Assembly (NCBI GenBank): GCA_964437755.1
Contig: CAYTIA010000001.1
Span: 1-43,657, forward strand
Direction of reading: 5' to 3'
Source of the DNA: an uncultured Pseudomonadales bacterium
GTDB taxonomy: Bacteria; Patescibacteriota; Microgenomatia; UBA1400; PJMF01
DNA: 43,657 nucleotides
The notes beneath the pieces were generated by a model that saw only the letters and a list, made by a program, of their open reading frames with translations, was not told the origin of the DNA and did not search any database. Below, one piece after another: positions 6,427 to 21,521 of the stretch (the stretch's first letter is position 1; each line of letters opens with the position of its first letter). The translations under genes and the position numbers were made by a program.

Positions 6427-8238
6427 TTAAGAATCTTTTTGTTCAAGAACAGGAGGTGTCGCATAGCGGTCAATTGCACACGCTTGGAAAGCGTGAGCTT
6501 CACGGCTCCGTGGGTTCGAATCCCACCACCTCCGCATAATGGAACTAGCCTGTTTTGAGTACTCAAATTTGTTTGAATTACCAATCTTTTCTGTAGGTTC
6601 TAACGAGCCCACAGTTTCTAGCATTTCTTTTTTGGCTTTTTTAACAAGGTAGAATGGTTTATGCTCATCTATCAATATTTCTTTATTCATTACCTTTAGG
6701 TTCTTACCAAGTTTTGACATAATATATGTCTTTTTCTCGATACCACCATGGTCAAACCAATACCTAGCGTAACAGGCAAATTCAAAGGTTTCTTTGGATA
6801 ATTCAATCCACTGTTTCTGTCTTTCATTAACTGTGCTGAGTTGTTCGGTGATTTCTTTTTGTTCTTGAAGCAACTCTTTTTCTTGATCATCGTACATTTG
6901 TTGTCGCTCAAGATCTAAGTTTGTGTTATCTCTAGAAATCCTTAACCTTATTAAATTTCTCAAGCTTTGTTTATTTTGATCAAATCTATCTTGAAGCTGT
7001 TTAAAAACCCTTGTATCTTGTTCTTCTTCTTGATCATTAACCTCATTCAAATGATCTATAGCCCAGTCTTTAAAAGACTCAGGGATTTCGTAGTCACAAA
7101 GAACACTATCAATTTTAGTTTCAATCTTGTCAATTTCAATGCTACCTTGTGAGCAGTTTGGATGAACTTTTTTAGTACAACTATAGTATGTGTAGTGCAA
7201 AAGTGTGGGGTTATCCATATCCACGATTTTAAGATTACACTTTGGGCATCTTGTTCTTTTTTGTGTTTGTGCAAATTTTCTTTTACAACTTGAACAGATT
7301 ATTTGATGTTTTTCTTGGCAGGTAATAGACCCATCACATTCTCCACAAGTTAAAAGCTTTTTATATGGAAAGCTTTTATTTGTCGCATGTGTTCGTTTTG
7401 GTATGCCTAACCTTTGTTGAAGCGTATTAAAATCTTTTTCAGTCAGCATTGGCTTGTGCTTTCCCATTTTTTCTCCTTCAGATCTAACCATTAGTCCATA
7501 GTAGTATTCATCAGTAATCATCCTATACCAGGCTGATTTGGACAATGGTCTATTACCTCTTTTTGCCCTCTGAATAGTTCTAAATTTCCAATCGTTATTA
7601 AGTTTATTCAACGCCTGAATTGGAGTGTGGCTTCCATCGATTATTAACCTCATTGCATCTTGAATTAATGTAAATCTATCTTTATCAATATCTATGTAAG
7701 AAGCTTTTGTAATTGGATCAGTCATATTAATATAACCAACTTTAGCCAGTCCCGGCCACCAACCTTGTTCAAATTTTTCTCTATTTCCTCTTTTAACAAC
7801 ATCAGAATTATCGTCTGAAGATTTTTTACTCATCGCAAAATCTATTTGCAACATAAACTTATCGTTTGCATTATCTATTGAGATTGAAGATGGGGTCCTG
7901 ATTTCAACTAATTTTTTTGTATCTAGCAAATGAATAATCATTCCACCATCAACAGCATTTCTTGCTAATCTATTTTTGTGCCAAACTAAGATTCCATTCG
8001 CTTCACCATTACTAATTTTAGAAATCATTTCATTGAATTGAGGTCTTCCTAGCTTATAAGCACTTCCTGATTCTTTATATACACCAACTATTTTTAAATT
8101 CTTTTCTTGAGCAAAATCTGTTAATTCTCTGTATTGAGATGATAAAGATAGAATTTGTCTATCTTCGCCCTCCGTACTTTTTCTACAGTACATTAAGTAC
8201 TTTATGCTAACTTCTTCGTGTTTTATTTGTTTTTTCAT
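6427..8238 (-). CDS. Large serine recombinase (integrase); 3' end reads through the antisense tRNA
   Basis: Catalytic YCRKST, ESGSA..GRPQF and NRLARN motifs, recombinase domain, zinc ribbon and coiled coil. The tail MRRWWDSNPRS... is antisense tRNA. Confidence 0.93.
   Translation of the reverse strand: MKKQIKHEEVSIKYLMYCRKSTEGEDRQILSLSSQYRELTDFAQEKNLKIVGVYKESGSAYKLGRPQFNEMISKISNGEANGILVWHKNRLARNAVDGGMIIHLLDTKKLVEIRTPSSISIDNANDKFMLQIDFAMSKKSSDDNSDVVKRGNREKFEQGWWPGLAKVGYINMTDPITKASYIDIDKDRFTLIQDAMRLIIDGSHTPIQALNKLNNDWKFRTIQRAKRGNRPLSKSAWYRMITDEYYYGLMVRSEGEKMGKHKPMLTEKDFNTLQQRLGIPKRTHATNKSFPYKKLLTCGECDGSITCQEKHQIICSSCKRKFAQTQKRTRCPKCNLKIVDMDNPTLLHYTYYSCTKKVHPNCSQGSIEIDKIETKIDSVLCDYEIPESFKDWAIDHLNEVNDQEEEQDTRVFKQLQDRFDQNKQSLRNLIRLRISRDNTNLDLERQQMYDDQEKELLQEQKEITEQLSTVNERQKQWIELSKETFEFACYARYWFDHGGIEKKTYIMSKLGKNLKVMNKEILIDEHKPFYLVKKAKKEMLETVGSLEPTEKIGNSNKFEYSKQASSIMRRWWDSNPRSREAHAFQACAIDRYATPPVLEQKDS
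6452..6534 (+). tRNA. trnS: tRNA-Ser(GGA); CCA not encoded
   Basis: Acceptor GGAGGTG/CACCTCC plus discriminator G, anticodon arm CACGC-TT-GGA-AA-GCGTG, long variable arm GAGC-TTCACG-GCTC, T arm GTGGG-TTCGAAT-CCCAC. Confidence 0.97.
6527..6536 (+). repeat. attL core CACCTCCGCA (tRNA 3' end)
   Basis: Identical 10-mer at 21664-21673. Confidence 0.75.
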
Positions 8239-12059: not shown

Positions 12060-12776
12060 ATGAAAAGAAAGAGTAACATTTTAACAAAATTAGAAAACAA
12101 AGAAGAAATTCAAGAATTTTTGGATAAACCAACTCTTTCTATAGCAGAAGCATTAACAGGATTGCTTGCTGATAATGGACTCATACCAAAATCCTATATT
12201 TTGTCAGCAGGAAGAATTGTACAAGGAGCAATTAAAGGTAAACTTTTAACACAGTTAGGCCTTGAGCTTTCTGAATATAGAAAAAAAGGTAGAATAAAAG
12301 AAGACTACTTTGCTTCACATAAAAATCAAGTAACCTTACTTGAATTGCTGGAGTTTATTGATACCGAAATCCCAGACGAAGAAATATTTAATGCCGTTAA
12401 ATCTATTTTTTTCGCTAGTGTTTCAACTGACTCTAATGTACAAAAAGAAGAGGTTGCATATCAACTTTTGCTTTTGTGTAAAAAATTGAATTCAATGGAA
12501 ATTTTGATTATAAAAACTTGTTATGAAGTATATTTAGGAAAGCACATAGATATAAATACAGGAATAAATAGTTATGGTGAGTGGGTAAATGCAATTTCTG
12601 AAAAAATTGGTTATGAATTGCCAGAGCTAGTGAGTTCATCAGATGACAAGTTAGTTAATTTAGGATTGTTGTCTTCTAGAAGTTATTCAGATAAATCTGG
12701 TATAAATCCAAGTAAAGAATTTAGATTAACTAAATTAGGTATAAAGCTTTGTAATTTTATTACAGAATTTAATTAG
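12060..12776 (+). CDS. Abi-alpha/DUF4393-like protein (tentative)
   Basis: Helical N-terminus and C-terminal winged-helix-like pattern LVNLGLL...FRLTKLGIKLCNFI. Confidence 0.5.
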   Translation: MKRKSNILTKLENKEEIQEFLDKPTLSIAEALTGLLADNGLIPKSYILSAGRIVQGAIKGKLLTQLGLELSEYRKKGRIKEDYFASHKNQVTLLELLEFIDTEIPDEEIFNAVKSIFFASVSTDSNVQKEEVAYQLLLLCKKLNSMEILIIKTCYEVYLGKHIDINTGINSYGEWVNAISEKIGYELPELVSSSDDKLVNLGLLSSRSYSDKSGINPSKEFRLTKLGIKLCNFITEFN

Positions 12777-12783
12777 GATATTT

Positions 12784-13164
12784 ATGAACAAAACCCTTTT
12801 ACAAAAAGCACAAGCATTAGCAAATAAAAAAGAACTTACTTCTGACGTAACTGTAGGACATGTTGGTTGCGCTTTAGAAACAAAATCAGGAAAAGTATAT
12901 ACAGGCTTAAGCGTAGGTACTTCTGCAAATCTTGGATTTTGTGCTGAAGTATGTGCAATGGCTCAAATGATAAAAGAGGGCGAAACTGAAATAAATGAAA
13001 TTGTTGCTACTGGACCTAATGGAGAATTAATTACTCCATGTGGAAGGTGTAGAGAACTTATGTTTCAAATAAATAGAAATAATTTAAAAGCTAAAATCTT
13101 ACTTGCTGACGATAAATTTATCACTTTAGAAGAACTCTTACCTCATAGATGGCAAGACTATTAG
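12784..13164 (+). CDS. Cytidine deaminase family protein (three-Cys zinc type)
   Basis: VGCAL..KSGKVYTG, FCAE and TPCGRCRE motifs. Confidence 0.88.
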   Translation: MNKTLLQKAQALANKKELTSDVTVGHVGCALETKSGKVYTGLSVGTSANLGFCAEVCAMAQMIKEGETEINEIVATGPNGELITPCGRCRELMFQINRNNLKAKILLADDKFITLEELLPHRWQDY

Positions 13165-13903: not shown

Positions 13904-14617
13904 TTATAAGTAACTCATTTTAAGCTTGTCTAACTTAACATCCTTGAAAATAATTGGATGAACATAGTAATTTGATTTAGTTAACAACTCTTGATTTTCT
14001 CTAGGGTTAGAAAATTTTAGTGCATCCCAGTTAAATAACTCAAAGTCTTCTTTAAGCATATCTACATAAACTGCATCGTCAAAAACTGACTTGCCATAAG
14101 AATCAATGAACTCTGTAGTTATAGCTACTTTAATTTCATTCACATTTTCATAATTAAATGCTTCTTCTGCAAATTTTATATAGAACTTCCAGATACTATT
14201 AGCCATATCTGTATTGTTGATAAATGTGTAATCTGCTGTTGAAATTTCAGCTACAACAAAACCTGTTTCCTCTTCATAACTGAGTGTCACATCTTGGTCA
14301 ATCTTATCTTTAGCTAAAATATCCAACCTCTCTTCTAAAGAAAGATCATTTTGAGAGGTCTCGGTTTCTTCTTGTGGTTTCTCTACTTTAACTTCTGTAA
14401 CTTCTGTAACTGAATCAGTTGGGGGTTGGTCACTAGAGTCATTTGTTGATGCTCCAACCATCGTAACGAAAATTAATCCAATAACAATAACTTTTGCTAG
14501 AGTTGGCCATTTTGTTTTCCAAGTTAAATACATCAACGTAAAGGGAAGAAAAATAATTGCTGGAATTAGCTTCCATGTTTTATACCAAGGCTTGGACGAT
14601 TGAGTGCCGGCTGTCAT
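13904..14617 (-). CDS. Membrane-anchored extracytoplasmic hypothetical protein
   Basis: KPWYKTW plus two hydrophobic segments, acidic linker and globular C-domain; AAGGAG RBS. Confidence 0.7.
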   Translation of the reverse strand: MTAGTQSSKPWYKTWKLIPAIIFLPFTLMYLTWKTKWPTLAKVIVIGLIFVTMVGASTNDSSDQPPTDSVTEVTEVKVEKPQEETETSQNDLSLEERLDILAKDKIDQDVTLSYEEETGFVVAEISTADYTFINNTDMANSIWKFYIKFAEEAFNYENVNEIKVAITTEFIDSYGKSVFDDAVYVDMLKEDFELFNWDALKFSNPRENQELLTKSNYYVHPIIFKDVKLDKLKMSYL

Positions 14618-14654
14618 AACGCTCCTTAAATGTTGTATTTATTAGCAACGATGT

Positions 14655-14778
14655 GCCTCAACATTGAAAGGACACCCCGTAGTCCTCAGCCGGCAAGCGT
14701 CGAACTCGATAGGGATGTCCTATACAAAGTTCGACACTCTTTTAAAGTGTTTTTAACTTGCCGGCTGAATATTGAAGC
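14655..14778 (-). ncRNA. Candidate structured RNA (multi-stem, possible pseudoknot or switch)
   Basis: Perfect 12-bp stem 14686-14697/14757-14768, 8-bp stem 14699-14706/14728-14735, outer stem 14655-14665/14768-14778 and cross-pairing 14670-14678/14712-14720. Mismatches resolve as G-U only on the minus strand. Confidence 0.55.
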
Positions 14779-14817
14779 TATTATATATTGATAATCAGAA
14801 AAATACACTGCTCATGA

Positions 14818-15693
14818 TCAATTTATTTTAAAAATTGATTTGACCAAAATTTTTGCTTTTTTTTCAAAATCAAATTTAAACAAATTGTAAAAATAATCTG
14901 GAACTAAATTATTATTTAATCTAGATCTAGCTATTTCATTTTGCAAATCTCTATGACTAATATTTGATTGAATATTACTACTTGCTTTAGACACAATTAT
15001 CTTATCAGCGATGCATTTTAGTGAATGCAAATTACTAGATGCACTAAAGTTATTTTTAATTTTTGAAATAAAAAATGAATAAATTGGTAAAAATAGTGAG
15101 CTTATGTATAAAAGATTTTGCAAAAATTCTTCTGAATAAAGCGAAAATAAAATCATGGTAATTATTCCCAATATGAGAAAAAGAAAAATTCCATAGTATT
15201 TTCTCAATTTTGAATCCCACCAACAATTTATTTTTTGACAAATGTAGCAGGCAGATGAAAAGTCAATATCTTTGTTTACAGCGTACCAATCTTTTAAATC
15301 ATCAAAGTTTTTATATTTTTCTAAGTAGCTATTAGAAGCAATTATTATTTCATCAATATCGGGTTTGTTGCCCAACAATACTTTGTTCCATGGGATTTTA
15401 TATAGTTTACAATCGAATATTTCCTGAATCTTTGTGGCTGATGTAGTCTTATTATCTATTGCGGGTCTTATTATAAAAAGGTCAATAAAAAAGATAAATA
15501 TTGAGTATACTGCAGCAATGTATTTTACATTTGTATAATATTCGACAACAAAAGCCATTAACACAACTCCTAAAACAGTGAATGTAAATTGAAACAACTC
15601 AAGTTTTTTTGCTTCTGAATAAATAAAACGTTGTGCAGCTAAAAAACTCAAATTTTGAGTAATATTTTGATTGTAGTGAATTTTATTGTTCAT
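14818..15693 (-). CDS. CBASS S-4TM (SMODS-associating 4TM, Cap16-like) membrane effector
   Basis: LAAQRFIYSEAK, KIQEIFDC..YKIPWN, LKDWY, CQKINCWWDSKLR and VPDYFY motifs; two TM hairpins; 9 nt downstream of the CD-NTase. Confidence 0.85.
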   Translation of the reverse strand: MNNKIHYNQNITQNLSFLAAQRFIYSEAKKLELFQFTFTVLGVVLMAFVVEYYTNVKYIAAVYSIFIFFIDLFIIRPAIDNKTTSATKIQEIFDCKLYKIPWNKVLLGNKPDIDEIIIASNSYLEKYKNFDDLKDWYAVNKDIDFSSACYICQKINCWWDSKLRKYYGIFLFLILGIITMILFSLYSEEFLQNLLYISSLFLPIYSFFISKIKNNFSASSNLHSLKCIADKIIVSKASSNIQSNISHRDLQNEIARSRLNNNLVPDYFYNLFKFDFEKKAKILVKSIFKIN

Positions 15694-15702
15694 ATTTATT
15701 CT

Positions 15703-16578
15703 TTAATAGTAGTATGCTGGAAATTCGCCAGCAAAGAGTAATTTCCACCATATAAATGCATCTGACGTTTTTTCTGCCATTTCAGCTTCTCTTGCTTTAT
15801 TTGCTCTAATCAAAGCAGTGTTTATTTTTGACTTAGCTTCAGTGAGTTTAAGAAAGCTAAAGGTTGGAACAATTGCGCCAGATACTCCAGTAGGATCATA
15901 CAAGGTAGCAAGATTAGTTGAATCTAAATACTTAAAAAAATTACGTAAGTCAATGCTATACAAAATGGAACTTTCACTTTCACAAAACTTAGCAGCTCTC
16001 ATTTCAAGATAAAATGAAGAAATAGGGACATTGTTGTAATATTTCCATGCTTTTATAAACCTTATTAATGGTTTTAGCTTATAACCAAGTTTAACATTTA
16101 GATTTCTAACATATCTTCCATGTATGTCTGGACTTGATTTCATCCAACCTCCATTGCAATCTGGAATATCATAAATGAGCTGACGATCAGCAGTTGCACT
16201 CATGTAATCTGCGGGAACAATCTCAGTCGCTTCTTGTGGATTTGAGCCAAATGGCACAACAACTGCTGGACTACTAATATGAACTCCCGTGTTTGGAAAC
16301 CTTTTATCTAAAGCATCTTTAATAAGTCTCAAGGTATAAGCTGAGTTTTGTTTTAGCACGTTTCCAGATAACGAAGCAAAATAGTCCACATCACTATATC
16401 CAGTAATACTGGTGCCGTTACCAAATGAGCCTGATCTAAAAAATCGCTTCAAAGTAAAATTTGCCTTCAAAGAATTTTCAATAGATGTTCTATGTCTTTT
16501 TGATGATTCTGATTCTGTACTAGTTGGTGTTAGTCTACTGTGAAAGTCAAGAAATCCTTGATTAATTGTTCTTGGCAT
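15703..16578 (-). CDS. cGAS/DncV-like nucleotidyltransferase (CD-NTase, SMODS) of CBASS
   Basis: SGSFGNGTSITGYSDVDYF (GS...DxD), EIVPA and LIRFIKAWKY..VPISSFYLE. Start moved to ATG 16578 (MPRT), which has an AAGAAGGA RBS. Confidence 0.9.
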   Translation of the reverse strand: MPRTINQGFLDFHSRLTPTSTESESSKRHRTSIENSLKANFTLKRFFRSGSFGNGTSITGYSDVDYFASLSGNVLKQNSAYTLRLIKDALDKRFPNTGVHISSPAVVVPFGSNPQEATEIVPADYMSATADRQLIYDIPDCNGGWMKSSPDIHGRYVRNLNVKLGYKLKPLIRFIKAWKYYNNVPISSFYLEMRAAKFCESESSILYSIDLRNFFKYLDSTNLATLYDPTGVSGAIVPTFSFLKLTEAKSKINTALIRANKAREAEMAEKTSDAFIWWKLLFAGEFPAYYY

Positions 16579-16613
16579 TGTTACTATATTTCCTTCTTTA
16601 AAACTATTTGATT

Positions 16614-16678
16614 TGCTATTGGTATCAAAATGATAGCAGTGTTTTGTGTTGATGTCAACATTATGATTGTGGTAAACT
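16614..16678. promoter_or_regulatory. Divergent promoters with palindromic operator candidates between CBASS and the XRE regulator
   Basis: Minus-strand TTGACA(16658-16653)-17nt-TATCAT(16635-16630); plus-strand TGgTAAACT (16670-16678). Palindromes TGTTGA-TG-TCAACA (16647-16660) and TATCA-AAA-TGATA (16623-16635). Confidence 0.7.
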
Positions 16679-16684
16679 ATCAAT

Positions 16685-17011
16685 ATGAAATATACAGATC
16701 TTGGTAAAAAAATTAAAGCTTTAAGAGAATCTAGGAAATTTACAAAACAAGAGTTTGCAGAAAAACTTGGCTACCAATCAGATACAGCTATTCATCTTAT
16801 TGAACGAGGTAAAAGAAAATTATCTATTGATAAACTTATGAAAGTTGCAGAGATATTTGAGATATCTATTTCAGAATTGATAACAGAAAATACTGAAATA
16901 GAAAAGCTAAATGTAGTAACAGCTTTGAGGTCAGATGGGGCATTAGATGAAGAAGACATTGATCAAATTTCTTCTTTTATTGATTTTATTAAGCAGAAAG
17001 GTACAAAATAA
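16685..17011 (+). CDS. XRE-family HTH repressor (CapH/ImmR-like)
   Basis: LGKKIKALRESRKFTKQEFAEKLG...IERGKRKLSID HTH_3 pattern. Confidence 0.9.
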   Translation: MKYTDLGKKIKALRESRKFTKQEFAEKLGYQSDTAIHLIERGKRKLSIDKLMKVAEIFEISISELITENTEIEKLNVVTALRSDGALDEEDIDQISSFIDFIKQKGTK

Positions 17012-17572
17012 GTGGACTACAATGATGAAGATACATCATATATTGAAGAGCTTGAGGAAAAGAAGACAAAGATAAGATATATAAAAAAAAGTGCTCAACA
17101 ACTTGTATCAGATGTCGGTTCAGATGTTCCAATAATTCTTCGTGATATTATTAAAAAGGTTCAAGAACAGAAAAAAATCTCAATTAATTGCAAGCCTATG
17201 GATCTTAGTAATAAATTTTCTGGACAAATAGTTATATATGGGAATGCTGTGGGAATTATTTATAATGAAAATCACTCAAGAAATCGACAAAGATTTACCG
17301 TTGCACATGAATTAGGCCATTTGATACTTGGACATGAGTTTAAAATTAAACAATATAATGAAATTATAAAATTTAACACTAAATCTCCAATAGAAAGAGA
17401 AGCAAACATATTCGCTGCAGAATTACTAATGCCTAAAAATATTTTAACAAAATATCTCAAAGAAAATAAAATCACTAGTGTGTCTGATCTATCAATTAAA
17501 TTTGAGGTGAGTGAAGAAGCTTTATGGTTTAAAATCAGTTCTGATAACTTGATGAAACATTTCACTTATTAA
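17012..17572 (+). CDS. ImmA/IrrE-family zinc metallopeptidase (CapP/ImmA-like)
   Basis: RQRFTVAHELGH (HExxH) and EREANIFAAELLMP. GTG start immediately follows the XRE stop codon. Confidence 0.9.
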   Translation: MDYNDEDTSYIEELEEKKTKIRYIKKSAQQLVSDVGSDVPIILRDIIKKVQEQKKISINCKPMDLSNKFSGQIVIYGNAVGIIYNENHSRNRQRFTVAHELGHLILGHEFKIKQYNEIIKFNTKSPIEREANIFAAELLMPKNILTKYLKENKITSVSDLSIKFEVSEEALWFKISSDNLMKHFTY

Positions 17573-17626
17573 AATATATTTGTCTTTTAAATTTAAAACT
17601 AATAAAAGAGGATAAATAATTGATTT

Positions 17627-17649
17627 TAACTTGGTCCACACTTCCGCCA
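17627..17649 (+). repeat. Degenerate att-like scar TAACTTGGTCCACACTTCCGCCA
   Basis: Resembles the attR arm TAACTTGGTACACACACCTCCGCA (21650-21673) and ends like a tRNA-Ser 3' end (TTCCGCCA). Confidence 0.6.
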
Positions 17650-17841
17650 GAGTCCCTTGGTTGCTCCATAACTTATCCCCCATGCTTAAATAGATTGATA
17701 TTATCTGTAATTTTTCTATAAAAGAATGAGGGTCTCAAATAGTTTGTTAATAGTAAAAAATGCTGAGGTATTTTTAAAAGGTGAAATGTTTGGTTCTGAG
17801 GTGACTAATTTCGATCGGTTATTATGAATGCCCTCTTGTCA

Positions 17842-17937
17842 TTGATTATGTATAAGTTTAACATGTACAATGTTAGTAAGAATTGTTAAGTAAAATTGAA
17901 TCAGGACAAACACTAAATGGAAGAATTGTTAACAATT
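17842..17937 (+). promoter_or_regulatory. Putative RM promoter and operator repeats
   Basis: TTGATT-18nt-TACAAT; palindrome TAACAT-N5-ATGTTA (17859-17875); AAGAATTGTTAA at 17878 and 17921; palindrome AATTGTTAACAATT (17924-17937). Confidence 0.5.
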
Positions 17938-19137
17938 ACTGAGGTATGTAACCTCTTAAAGGTACATCCAAATACGCTTAGAAACTGGGATAAACAAGGT
18001 CTGCTAACTGCCGTGAGAATTGGCGTACGTGGTGATAGACGTTATCTCAAGCAAGATATTGTCGATCTAGCCTCATCCAATATAGATATGCGTGAAAATT
18101 CTGGACCTACGGTGCTTGATTTATTCTCAGGTTGCGGAGGCTTATCCTACGGCTTTGAGATGGCTGGATTTAAGGTGCTTGCTGGGGTTGACAACTGGGA
18201 TGATGCGTTAAAAACATTTAAATATAATCACAAAAATTCAAGAATACACAATTTAGATTTATTCAATTTTAACTTGGAAGAATTTGAAGATACTGCCAAT
18301 TATAAAGGCAAAGTAGATGTCATAGTTGGTGGCCCACCTTGCCAAGGTTTTTCTATTGCAGGACATAGGCTTAAGGATGATCCAAGAAATAGCCTATACA
18401 AAGCATTTGTTGACTTTGTTGAATTCTACAAACCAAAGGTTTTCTTGCTTGAAAATGTTCCTAATATTTTAGCTATGGATGGAGGTTCAATAAGGGATGG
18501 AATTATAAAAGATTTCGAGGCGCTTGGGTACATGATTACCTATAAGAAGTTGTTAGCATCTGATTATGGGGTGCCTCAATCACGAAGAAGAGCAGTGTTT
18601 GTTGGTTCAAAAAAGGGAACATTTGAATTTCCTGAGGCTAGTTTTTCAAGACCTGTTACGAGTAAAGAGGCTATCTCTGATTTACCGGAAAATACACTTC
18701 AGGATGGGGCTGCATATGTCTCAGAACCCTTGAGCGATTATCAGAGGATAATGAGGGAAGCGAGTTCTGGTATATATAATCATGTCGCTACTGTACATAC
18801 CTATACTACACAGAGCATAATATCTCTAGTTCCCGATGGAAAAAACTTTAAGAGCCTTCCCCGTGAACTACAAAATACCCGAAAGGTCAACATAGCATGG
18901 ACAAGAATCAACAGTCAGAAACCAAGTATGACTATAGACACTGGGCACAATCACCATTTTCATTACCAGTTCAATCGAGTACCGACTGCTAGAGAATCCG
19001 CACGTCTACAGTCTTTCCCAGATAATTTTATTTTTTTAGGGGGAAAGACAAGTCAATTAAAGCAAATTGGAAACGCAGTTCCACCGCTAATGGCTAAAGT
19101 ACTTGCCAAGGAGATAAAGGAGCAATATGAATTATAA
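17917..19137 (+). CDS. C5 cytosine DNA methyltransferase with N-terminal MerR/excisionase-like HTH
   Basis: N-terminal LLTITEVCNLLKVHPNTLRNWD; DLFSGCGG, GGPPCQGFS, ENV, QSRRR and QIGNAVPP motifs. Confidence 0.93.
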   Translation: MEELLTITEVCNLLKVHPNTLRNWDKQGLLTAVRIGVRGDRRYLKQDIVDLASSNIDMRENSGPTVLDLFSGCGGLSYGFEMAGFKVLAGVDNWDDALKTFKYNHKNSRIHNLDLFNFNLEEFEDTANYKGKVDVIVGGPPCQGFSIAGHRLKDDPRNSLYKAFVDFVEFYKPKVFLLENVPNILAMDGGSIRDGIIKDFEALGYMITYKKLLASDYGVPQSRRRAVFVGSKKGTFEFPEASFSRPVTSKEAISDLPENTLQDGAAYVSEPLSDYQRIMREASSGIYNHVATVHTYTTQSIISLVPDGKNFKSLPRELQNTRKVNIAWTRINSQKPSMTIDTGHNHHFHYQFNRVPTARESARLQSFPDNFIFLGGKTSQLKQIGNAVPPLMAKVLAKEIKEQYEL

Positions 19138-20518
19138 TCACTTAAATCAATATCGAGCGACAATCATACGAGGCAAGGCTAAAAATGCACTTGATGACCT
19201 TCTTCCCACTTATGCACAAATTATTGAAGAAATCACCCCTGTGAGTGTAGGTGAATTCCATCATAGATTCAACAAAGCTTTACATTTAATTATTCCTAGT
19301 GCGGAAAAAAAGACTTTAGATAACCATAGAACTGAGATTGTTGGAAAGTTATTCGGAATGTACTACGAAGACGAAGGCTCAATATTTATGTCTGAGCGTA
19401 CTCAAAAGTTCTTAGCCGACGGCGACCAGCCTGCATTTTTCAAAGATTGGTGCTTCAGATTTCAATTTCCTAATGGTCTCGATAAAATACAGACATTGCT
19501 CGATAAAATTGAGCATGACGTAAATATACGGCCATTCTGTTTTATAGTTAAATTAGTAATGGATGCATATCAACAAGATATTGTCTTAAACCAAAACGAA
19601 ATTGGTTATTATGCTATGAATAACCTTGATGTGCTAAGTGGAACAGCAACCACAGATGAAGTGATTGATCAAATCAAAGAGGATCGAAACAGCCGAATCA
19701 CTAGAAGAGTTAGCTACATAGGGAAAGCTGAGAGCTACAATAGTCAGCATATTCGTGAACAGCTAAATTATCTTGAACTAGCAAATCTTATACGCAATAA
19801 AAGTGGCAACATCTTCCCTAACTTAAAGGAAAAAAATGCTCTCGAAGAGTTTGCACAAAATGCCTACAGTGTCGGGTTTAATACAAAAAAATATGACCTT
19901 GATAATGAAACAGAAAAAGCACGATTTTATCATGACTGGCAGGTCTACTATTCAAGTATCACAAAAGGAATAACTGAAGAATTTTCCACAAGTATTGAGG
20001 CATTAGAGTACGACATAGATGAATCTGGGAAACAGGTCACAAAAGCATATGCCGTGGATACTATGCTGATTGGGGATGAAGGAGAAGCACTTGTATATGA
20101 TTATGAGAAAAAGCGTGTGGGGAAATATGATTCACGCCTTACTAACAAAATTCATATGCTAGGGAAGACAAAGGGGTTGGGATATGACATACAGTCGATT
20201 TTTGCAGATGAGAGTGAAGATCCAGAGTTTGTAAAATACATTGAAGTTAAGTCAACTAAAAGAGTAACCTCCCCTGATAAAGATAATAACGAGTGGACTG
20301 ACACTCTTAATGTTACTCGAAACGAATGGGTAGCTGCTCAACAACACCGTGGCAGTTATGAAATATATAGAGTATATTTCACACAAGCTGGACCTGAAGT
20401 TTTTATTATAAAAAACCCCTATGAAAAGAATGAGAATAAAGTTATTCGCACAATACCAACAACCTATAGGCTAGACTTTAACGCAGAAGCTATAGATAAG
20501 GCGTTCACTTATGCCTAA
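19127..20518 (+). CDS. Putative type II restriction endonuclease with C-terminal DUF3883-like PD-(D/E)XK domain
   Basis: GDEGEALVYDYE, GLGYDIQS, YIEVKST and TRNEW motifs; overlaps both methylases. Confidence 0.8.
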   Translation: MNYNHLNQYRATIIRGKAKNALDDLLPTYAQIIEEITPVSVGEFHHRFNKALHLIIPSAEKKTLDNHRTEIVGKLFGMYYEDEGSIFMSERTQKFLADGDQPAFFKDWCFRFQFPNGLDKIQTLLDKIEHDVNIRPFCFIVKLVMDAYQQDIVLNQNEIGYYAMNNLDVLSGTATTDEVIDQIKEDRNSRITRRVSYIGKAESYNSQHIREQLNYLELANLIRNKSGNIFPNLKEKNALEEFAQNAYSVGFNTKKYDLDNETEKARFYHDWQVYYSSITKGITEEFSTSIEALEYDIDESGKQVTKAYAVDTMLIGDEGEALVYDYEKKRVGKYDSRLTNKIHMLGKTKGLGYDIQSIFADESEDPEFVKYIEVKSTKRVTSPDKDNNEWTDTLNVTRNEWVAAQQHRGSYEIYRVYFTQAGPEVFIIKNPYEKNENKVIRTIPTTYRLDFNAEAIDKAFTYA

Positions 20519-21521
20519 TGCAATATACAGTGTAGTATCACTTTTTGCTGGATGTGGTGGTGGCGACTTAGGTATGAAGGGTGGCTTTAATTATATTAAC
20601 AAAGAATATAAATCCCACCCTCTTTCATTTGCTCATATTTCTGACTTTGACAGACATTGTGTAGTTACTCTAAATGCTAACTTTGGAACAGCGGCAGAAC
20701 ACCTAGATGTTCGGGACCTGAGCTTAGATGGTTATAGTGCTGACATAGTTGTTGGTGGATTTCCATGTCAGTCATTTAGCACTGTTAATCCTACAAAAGA
20801 TCCTTATGACGACAGAGCTCAGCTCTATAAGGAGATGCTCAGGATTGTACGACAGACTAAACCGAAAGTAGTGATAGGCGAGAATGTAAAGGGTCTTGCA
20901 GTGCTAGATAAGGGAAACTTTTTAAAGCGAATTGTTAAAGAATTAGAAGCAGAAGGTTATAAAGTTAAGACCCAAATACTCAATGCTGCAGATTACGGCG
21001 TGCCACAAAAACGTCAAAGACTGTTTATTGTCGGTGTACGAAATGATATAGGTATAGAGTTCATGTTTCCTGAGCCAACTCATATAAATAATTGGATTCC
21101 ACTTTCTAAGGTAATAGATAGTCTCGTGCCCAAAGATGATAAATACTATTTCAGCAAAAGGGCTGTTGAAGGAATGAAGAATGCTAAAAACAATATGAAA
21201 CGAGGTTTGGCACAGAGTCTTGATGGACCATGCTTAACCATTACATCTCATTTAGCTAAAGTAAGTTTGAATTCTAGAGATCCCGTTCTCATGGTTGACC
21301 CAAAAAAAGAATTATATAGACGATTCACTGTTCGTGAGGCGGCAAGAATTCAATCATTTCCTGATGATTTTGAATTTCCTGTTAGTGATCATCAGGCTTA
21401 CAGACAAATAGGCAACGCTATACCACCAGTTTTAATGTGGAATATAACAAATGAAGTGATAGAACTCCTGAATAAATATGAAGAGAGAAGTATAGTAAAT
21501 AAATCTAAAAGTATCGTTTAA
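20511..21521 (+). CDS. C5 cytosine DNA methyltransferase (second)
   Basis: SLFAGCGG, GGFPCQSFS, ENV, QKRQR and QIGNAIPP motifs. Confidence 0.93.
   Translation: MPNAIYSVVSLFAGCGGGDLGMKGGFNYINKEYKSHPLSFAHISDFDRHCVVTLNANFGTAAEHLDVRDLSLDGYSADIVVGGFPCQSFSTVNPTKDPYDDRAQLYKEMLRIVRQTKPKVVIGENVKGLAVLDKGNFLKRIVKELEAEGYKVKTQILNAADYGVPQKRQRLFIVGVRNDIGIEFMFPEPTHINNWIPLSKVIDSLVPKDDKYYFSKRAVEGMKNAKNNMKRGLAQSLDGPCLTITSHLAKVSLNSRDPVLMVDPKKELYRRFTVREAARIQSFPDDFEFPVSDHQAYRQIGNAIPPVLMWNITNEVIELLNKYEERSIVNKSKSIV

Follow-up and report, generated by a model that had tools for sequence, protein, structure and literature searches.

The locus described here raises the question of how a minimal immune operon is switched on when its apparent controller lacks the domain on which the published switching mechanism depends. 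The window (the whole 43,657-nucleotide, or 43.7-kb, stretch of contig CAYTIA010000001.1 that was analyzed) carries at 14818-17572 four genes arranged as two divergent pairs. One pair encodes a CD-NTase, the oligonucleotide cyclase of a CBASS (antiphage signaling that works through cyclic oligonucleotides), and an S-4TM membrane effector; the other encodes a CapH-like XRE repressor and a short M78 zinc peptidase of CapP/ImmA type (Table 1). Taken whole, the locus is best explained as a type I CBASS under CapH/CapP-type derepression, a reading to which we give a probability of about 0.7. Pairs of capH and capP have been reported upstream of type I, II, and III CBASS, including those with 4TM effectors, in a collection of 408 CapP-linked CBASS (Lau et al. 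2022, bioRxiv 10.1101/2022.04.27.489752, a study that used 6,233 CD-NTases). In the published CapP mechanism, single-stranded DNA (ssDNA) is held in a groove that the peptidase domain and the GAF domain form between them (Calloji et al. 2026, bioRxiv 10.64898/2026.05.16.725639). The CBASS core of the window is ordinary, and the system belongs to a known kind in which only the short form of the regulator is new; that form is common and uncharacterized.

The cyclase matches the PADLOC oligonucleotide cyclase model PDLC00776 over its full profile (1-287/287; 2.4e-112) and Pfam SMODS at 1.1e-10, and it matches NCBIfam CBASS_cyclase_b at 2e-32, a value under that model's cut-off. Both nucleotidyltransferase motifs, G50-S51...G55 and D63-V-D65, are found, and alignment to 6p82 makes D140 (in IPD) the probable third acidic residue. 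The nearest solved relatives are 6p82 (3.4e-13) and the CdnC of E. coli MS115-1, 6p80 (8.4e-10), with 6p8u and 6p8j also recovered; we take 6p82 to be the CdnD of P. aeruginosa. The mechanically called open reading frame (ORF) of 326 aa from a TTG at 16683 over-extends the gene. Every cyclase profile begins at residue 36 of that frame, which is an ATG at 16578 preceded by the Shine-Dalgarno-like motif AGGAAA, and the start was therefore placed there, leaving a 291-aa protein and a divergent intergenic region of 106 bp. The effector gene follows 9 nt downstream in the same operon; its product has three strong hydrophobic segments in a Kyte-Doolittle scan and a weaker fourth read by eye. PADLOC models for E1/E2/JAB (Cap2/Cap3), HORMA, and TRIP13 had no matches among 12 proteins scanned around the locus, which places it in type I (minimal) CBASS in the classification of Millman et al. 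2020, as cited in Lau et al. 2022. Judged by gene content, this is an intact two-gene system. On the other strand, the repressor matches the capH profile almost end to end, its C-terminal oligomerization domain included, and the capH stop codon directly abuts the GTG start of capP. The HExxH motif (HELGH) and distal Glu of an M78 zinc peptidase are both present, and the zinc-site residues H99, E100, H103, and E128 are invariant in an alignment of 21 relatives. A preliminary description of this DNA had proposed an operon of CD-NTase and 4TM effector without cap2/3 or cap7/8, divergent from an XRE repressor and an HExxH peptidase. The first part is upheld by the Pfam and PADLOC matches, the 9-nt spacing, and the 12 scanned neighbors, and the second by the capH, capP, HTH_3, and M78 matches and the shared 106-bp region; the PADLOC run suggested there as a check returned matches to the cyclase, 4TM, capH, and capP models.

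The peptidase is where the locus departs from the characterized systems. The capP profile has 242 positions, and the peptidase matches it no further than position 150, with the part from about 155 to 242 absent; set against the domain map of E. coli CapP (peptidase 1-141, helix-turn-helix (HTH) 142-182, GAF 182-288; Calloji et al. 2026), the missing part is the GAF domain. The same profile ended at 150-154 in all 12 other short forms tested (L013, L015, L050, and nine more), and in the long forms of other loci (289-396 aa) it reached 242 in 4 of the 5 tested, all genome loci. A hidden Markov model (HMM) built locally from 32 distinct long-form tails, a narrow clade that limits its reach, found no GAF remnant in any of the six frames of the window, and its 38 matches all fell in long-form loci, with none in short-form loci. 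The AlphaFold2 (AF2) model of the peptidase (predicted local distance difference test, pLDDT, 88.6; predicted TM score, pTM, 0.85) consists of the peptidase domain and a small helical domain only. Foldseek ranks Thauera CapP 7t5t first for this model (E 1.4e-6, TMq 0.62, TMt 0.43) and IrrE 3dte and PprI 8sln next. The sole cysteine of the protein is C60; none lies between HELGH (H103) and the third zinc ligand E128, a loop with low pLDDT in the AF2 model, and the peptidase thus has no cysteine switch. Such a switch loop occurs in many, not all, CapPs (Calloji et al. 2026).

A truncated pseudogene was considered and rejected. Among the 120 nearest homologues listed, from a search that admitted lengths up to 326 aa, 116 are of 205 aa or less, three are HTH fusions of 271-273 aa, and none has the length of CapP; no GAF remnant was found in the spacer at 17573-17916 or in the six window frames. 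The nearest relatives are mostly of about 160-205 aa, those with names are called ImmA/IrrE family, and the alignment of 21 relatives extends to a conserved C terminus, VSEEAMWFKI...NL. Since the nearest homologues are likewise short, the protein is short by nature rather than truncated, a conclusion independent of the GAF-tail HMM. Profile coverage, that HMM, the AF2 model, and the homologue lengths all agree with the original impression that the peptidase has no C-terminal GAF-like domain. It is the only M78 gene of the genome. The 344-bp spacer itself, between capP and a methylase gene, contains no plus-strand ORF of 50 aa or more; a 53-aa minus-strand ORF (17522-17683) overlaps its start. 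A locally GC-richer patch lies near 17630-17690, and the spacer has no Rfam match at gathering thresholds, which over the whole window found tRNA-Ser alone.

Features of the repressor were read from a jackhmmer alignment of 138 XRE proteins encoded upstream of such peptidases, 34 of them beside long and 99 beside short forms. E. coli CapH is reported to be cleaved at F82-R83 (Calloji et al. 2026), and L81-R82 of the window CapH falls on a column pair that is F-R in 32 of the 34 long-form partners. In the partners of short forms, the first of these columns holds L, I, or V in 58/99 and the second K or R in 29/99. The pattern [LVF]R[AS] occupies the cleavage column in 10 of 32 aligned CapHs, and the closest CapH relatives share the motif A-LR[AS][DE] in 10 of 32 rows, the window protein being included in both counts. 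A second column separates the two groups. In E. coli the CapH tryptophan W35 packs on the GAF domain, where the CapH HTH docks (Calloji et al. 2026). This column is W in 31/34 long-form partners and I, V, or L in 93/99 short-form partners, with I36 in the window, a replacement that is consistent with loss of the GAF domain. In sequence, the N-terminal half of the window CapH matches ICEBs1 ImmR 7t8i better (5.6e-4) than it matches 7t5u, the N-terminal domain of CapH (0.093). Prediction of a complex between the CapP-like peptidase and CapH gave a median score of 0.49 against 0.01 for the best control, with contact agreement of at least 77% and partner pLDDT of at least 72 across the runs. Of 157 solved complexes, 116 attained the mark used for this score, as did 2 of 215 mismatched pairs; 18 of the 116 and both of the mismatched pairs had values of 0.60 or less. 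The prediction is mildly favorable to binding of CapH by the peptidase.

The region between the cyclase and capH offers a plausible place for repression. Of 12 promoter-like sites in 14500-18000, the one that faces the cyclase from this region is the best, and its -10 box falls within the palindrome TATCAaaaTGATA. This palindrome, a candidate operator for CapH, is the sole exact match to the pattern TATCANNNTGATA in the window. When one mismatch is allowed, the pattern matches eight times in the window against 3.3 +/- 2.0 by chance (4 of 100 shuffles reach eight), and two of the eight matches fall within the control region. A weak plus-strand promoter read by eye, TTGATG-18-TAAACT, matches at 8 of 12 positions, below the tool threshold, and would put the start of the capH mRNA at or near its ATG.

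Whether the short form belongs to this host or is of wider use was judged from its distribution. Eighty of the matching loci were taken from each of species genomes, metagenomes, and viral contigs with the short-family alignment as query (best identity among the matches listed 42-50%); the 50-62% identical peptidase relatives in the homologue list are not among the loci fetched. Among the loci listed, the peptidase is short in 65, long in 14, and incomplete in 1 from genomes; short in 64, long in 8, and incomplete in 5 from metagenomes, where three more were dropped for want of an ORF spanning the match; and short in 61 and long in 19 from viral contigs, with none incomplete. A nearly clonal group of full-length capP genes of about 309 aa runs through the viral contigs (L187-L243) and genome contigs (L054-L078). 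By jackhmmer (11 cyclases), a CD-NTase was placed beside 8/65 short genome forms, 2/64 short metagenome forms, and 1/5 incomplete metagenome forms, and within the flanks fetched beside none of the 61 short viral or 41 long forms listed. PADLOC added L025, with a cyclase fragment at the contig edge and a phospholipase effector, raising the genome count to 9/65. These counts were used because tblastn with four cyclase queries recovered fewer cyclase loci. As in the window, the cyclase is upstream and on the opposite strand in all eight genome loci where jackhmmer placed one; L095, whose M78 protein is the closest relative among the loci listed (50% identity), likewise faces a cyclase.

The CBASS loci with the short form cover types I, II, and III among those listed. 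They include 2TM effectors in Paceibacteria (L013) and Actinomycetota (L050), a HORMA protein in Alcaligenaceae (L023), and an E2 protein in Thermodesulfobacteriota (L035); L015, L021, L075, and L087 are further CD-NTase-bearing examples, and the short form also stands next to CD-NTases in Pseudomonadales, Streptomyces, and Bacteroidota. PADLOC, applied to the two genes upstream in each of 60 short genome loci, gave a match at 1e-8 or better in 15 loci, and besides cyclases the matches were E1-E2 (L019, L042, L049, L055), BilC (L032, L074), PDC-S16/DUF2188 (L015, L021), and a restriction system (L014). In two of the CBASS loci capH and the cyclase operon are separated by the small DUF2188/PDC-S16 gene (L015:6321-6623 and L021:6182-6403); DUF2188 was named as a CapH/CapP-associated family by Lau et al. 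2022. In another locus, L008 (G208:C1:19000-35000) of a related-phylum genome, the segment 5958-9597 holds a second, different cyclase (PDLC00802, 3.9e-46) ahead of a cyclase 52% identical to that of the window. The latter is followed on the same strand by an S-4TM gene and a short M78 peptidase gene adjoining a recombinase zinc-ribbon fragment, so that the same parts appear rewired. Because the short form stands beside diverse CBASS and ubiquitin-like operons, the GAF-less pair is, on this comparison of gene neighborhoods, a portable controller of immune operons across many phyla and not a peculiarity of the host. The compact variant had at first seemed unusual or host-linked, and this view did not survive: the short form recurs beside CD-NTases in several phyla, including 9 of the 65 genome loci listed.

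Under CapH/CapP-type derepression, the system would work as follows. The CapH-like repressor would hold the cyclase-effector operon low, probably by binding the palindrome TATCA-N3-TGATA over the -10 box of the cyclase promoter, and would probably limit its own synthesis through a second, weaker site at its start codon. On activation, the co-translated M78 peptidase would cut CapH in the linker before the C-terminal dimerization helix, with L81-R82 as the predicted cut, and the CBASS proteins would rise. The CD-NTase would make a cyclic (oligo)nucleotide upon infection, and the co-transcribed S-4TM protein would bind this signal and permeabilize the membrane, aborting the infection. Because the peptidase has neither GAF domain nor cysteine switch, it is impossible for it to sense ssDNA in the published peptidase-GAF groove, and a different activating signal for the short form is a reasonable inference. 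Our best guess is an ImmA-like trigger, either a partner protein or a damage- or infection-linked change in abundance or activity; the genome encodes RecA, which bears only on the feasibility of a RecA/damage route.

Several observations weigh against this reading. Of the 34 long-form CapHs, 31 share the same residues; with a set this close to clonal, the tryptophan contrast amounts to one evolutionary event and not an independent statistic. The complex score of 0.49 lies in a range that the tool labels "more often wrong than right unless likely beforehand." The 12 promoter-like sites in 14500-18000 do not exceed the number in shuffles (18.3 +/- 4.3), and the position of the best site is accordingly suggestive and not proof. 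Palindromes occur in 4 of 6 intergenic regions of other CBASS-linked short-form loci with unrelated sequences, and these give the operator no support either way. One of the closest cyclase relatives in the phylum sample (G048, 56% identity) has no capH or capP nearby, and beside the 52%-identical relative in G208 the short M78 gene is co-directional and downstream of the effector instead of divergent; these two arrangements point to the regulator as a swappable accessory. Finally, R92 of the peptidase, which corresponds to the ssDNA-contacting R90 of E. coli CapP, is retained and leaves room for ssDNA sensing by another surface.

This last point bears on an alternative in which the regulation is the same and ssDNA is still the trigger, the short peptidase binding it through its peptidase and helical domains in a canonical damage response. 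R92 and R94 of the RQRFT motif are invariant in the aligned relatives, mutation of R90 weakens ssDNA binding by E. coli CapP, and IrrE, which has no cysteine switch, cleaves DdrO without ssDNA and is merely stimulated by it (Calloji et al. 2026). However, four of the five ssDNA-contact residues tested in that work (K195, W196, Y264, and W280) sit in the GAF domain, the ssDNA groove itself lies between the peptidase domain and the portion that the window peptidase lacks, and RQRFT is family-wide, being found also in CapP 7t5t and IrrE, and thus is not specific evidence. We regard an ssDNA trigger as unlikely, yet as an account to be taken seriously beside CapH/CapP-type derepression by another signal.

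A very improbable account is that the XRE/M78 pair is an ImmR/ImmA-type immunity module of a mobile island, or the controller of the restriction-modification operon downstream, and adjoins CBASS by chance. The setting lends it some color. GC content is 25-32% at 10-18 kb against 33-39% on the flanks, and this low-GC stretch is bordered by a tRNA-Ser gene and a serine recombinase on one side and by a BpuJI-type restriction system with two C5 methylases on the other. The large serine recombinase (603 aa; ORF 6427-8238, minus strand) overlaps at its 3' end the entire tRNA-Ser(GGA) gene (6452-6535, plus strand), which suggests integration of the island at tRNA-Ser(GGA); a search of 6300-27000 for a direct repeat of the tRNA-Ser region, as an att site, found none. 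Relatives of the peptidase are encoded in at least 370 viral-contig stretches, the N-terminal half of CapH leans toward ImmR as noted above, and no terminator-like site lies on the plus strand between capP and the methylase gene at 17917. Against this, a PHROGs scan of 15 island proteins revealed no phage structural genes and no transfer or conjugation genes, and the divergent CD-NTase pairing occurs in 9/65 unrelated genome loci listed against 0/61 short-form viral loci listed. The first methylase probably brings its own controller, an N-terminal MerR/HTH_17 domain, and there are promoter-like sites at 17836-17871. The recombinase gene is 8.4 kb from the XRE/M78 pair, across eight genes of mixed orientation, and no match to the candidate operator, even with one mismatch, lies upstream of it. 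This distance and the lack of an operator-like site there leave without support the idea, raised in the preliminary description, that the pair might also control island excision.

Least credible of all is a self-standing, toxin-antitoxin-like or abortive XRE + COG2856 module with no transcriptional role over CBASS: the peptidase also matches PADLOC RmrA models (5.6e-16), PDC-M69B, and, under its cut-off, the NCBIfam spr1629 repressor/antitoxin model (3.4e-12), but capP and capH are the best PADLOC matches by 16 and 3 orders of magnitude in E-value, RmrA and spr1629 are fusion proteins of about 360-400 aa unlike this two-gene pair, and the shared promoter region and recurrent divergent layout point to regulation.

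Two further gene groups lie near the locus. The BpuJI-like type II restriction system occupies 17917-21521, where the two C5 cytosine methylases flank a 463-aa BpuJI_N + NOV_C endonuclease (REase_II, 6.2e-148). Within the same low-GC island, at 12060-13164, a weakly Abi_alpha-like protein (6.9e-4, under the cut-off) and, 8 nt on, a 126-aa cytidine/dCMP deaminase-fold protein are encoded; they may form a small defense pair, and neither PADLOC, PHROGs, nor NCBIfam matches the pair.

Table 1. Coordinates of the CBASS genes, the regulatory pair, and the shared control region in the window
Feature	Coordinates	Strand	Length and evidence
S-4TM membrane effector	14818..15693	-	291 aa; Pfam S_4TM (PF18159) 8.8e-58, profile 1-285/291; PADLOC 4TM effector 2.2e-62
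CD-NTase (CBASS oligonucleotide cyclase)	15703..16578	-	291 aa from ATG 16578
Divergent control region cyclase/capH	16579..16684	.	106 bp; holds promoter-like site and both operator-like sites
Perfect palindrome TATCAaaaTGATA, candidate CapH operator	16623..16635	.	overlaps -10 box of cyclase promoter-like site
Promoter-like site facing cyclase	16630..16658	-	TTGACA, 17 nt, TG-TATCAT; 11/12 matches, extended -10 TG
Second operator-like site TATCAATATGAAA	16678..16690	.	one mismatch; overlaps capH start codon
CapH-like XRE repressor	16685..17011	+	108 aa; PADLOC capH 3.8e-16 (profile 2-102/103); Pfam HTH_3 2.2e-12
Short CapP/ImmA-type M78 zinc peptidase	17012..17572	+	186 aa; PADLOC capP 3.2e-32 (profile 5-150/242); Pfam Peptidase_M78 8e-23

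The host had been taken for a probable member of the candidate phyla radiation (CPR), and this assignment is well supported: the genome measures 1.03 Mb at 97.8% completeness, and the genomes listed among 401 sampled from the phylum range from 0.8 to 1.6 Mb. Named homologues of the peptidase come from Dojkabacteria, Pacebacteria, and Roizmanbacteria. Relatives of the window cyclase were found in 5 of the 401 sampled genomes and SMODS-domain genes past the Pfam cut-off in 18, the genome of the window being included in each count. A second minimal CBASS lies on contig 15 of the same genome (L011:5807-8291, equivalent to C15:17806-20290). There, a 1TM effector gene (PADLOC 7.4e-57) has its start overlapped by the gene for a 220-aa LexA paralogue, which scores 120 bits with TIGR00498, where the cut-off is 111 and the housekeeping LexA on contig 20 reaches 200.8 bits. 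The next gene encodes a 441-aa CD-NTase with an AGS-C domain (PDLC00785, 4.8e-177), and all three are co-directional. This second CBASS is apparently controlled by a self-cleaving repressor of LexA type. Immediately upstream, on the opposite strand, is a retron-type RT-Toprim I-C gene (1.2e-188).

A broader proposition can be offered tentatively. GAF-less, cysteine-less short CapPs with Trp-less CapHs might constitute a separate and widespread class of immune-operon switches, serving CBASS types I-III and ubiquitin-like/Bil operons from CPR bacteria to Proteobacteria and Actinomycetota and answering a signal other than groove-bound ssDNA, such as activated RecA or a partner protein from phage or host; we consider this possible but doubtful in its full extent. 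If it were true, the genome studied here would run two minimal CBASS under two protease-type repressors, the XRE/M78 pair and the LexA paralogue. The locus in the window joins at least nine CBASS loci like it and several ubiquitin-like ones from other phyla in showing that many immune operons use a GAF-less peptidase, whereas the published mechanism rests on the GAF domain. The locus would also be a case of inducible abortive-infection immunity in an ultra-small, probably host-dependent bacterium, where the pay-off of suicide defense is unclear. GAF-less CapPs are not mentioned in the accessible text of Lau et al. 2022 or Calloji et al. 2026, nor in what a full-text search returned; the list of 408 in the former may include them.

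Compared with known systems, the core resembles other type I CBASS with a 4TM effector in its two-gene cyclase and S-4TM content without ancillary Cap genes, with no structural difference; here the host is a Patescibacteria-like bacterium with a genome of about 1 Mb. DdrO/IrrE (PprI) of Deinococcus shares the logic of a protease that cleaves a repressor and the lack of a cysteine switch, and IrrE 3dte and PprI 8sln are the next-best structures to the peptidase, but that pair governs a DNA-repair regulon and not an immune operon. The window peptidase is likened to ImmA by length and architecture and not by alignment; on that basis, it shares with ImmR/ImmA of ICEBs1 and phi105 a short, single-module M78 peptidase without GAF domain and an XRE/cI-type repressor as the predicted cleavage target, and among solved structures the window CapH has one of its best matches in 7t8i, the N-terminal domain of ImmR. 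ImmR/ImmA of Bacillus subtilis ICEBs1 and phage phi105 (as summarized in Lau et al. 2022) adjoins int/xis and controls excision of the element, whereas the window pair faces CBASS and the recombinase gene has no operator-like site. The closest comparison is with CapH/CapP of E. coli MS115-1 and Thauera sp. K11. The window peptidase differs from these in having no GAF domain and no cysteine in the switch loop, and the window CapH in having isoleucine for the GAF-contacting tryptophan, and the published ssDNA-groove mechanism is therefore not applicable as described. In other respects the likeness is close: an XRE repressor and an M78 peptidase encoded upstream of and opposite to a CBASS core, a full capH profile with a hydrophobic-Arg pair at the aligned cleavage position, and a peptidase fold nearest to that of CapP 7t5t.

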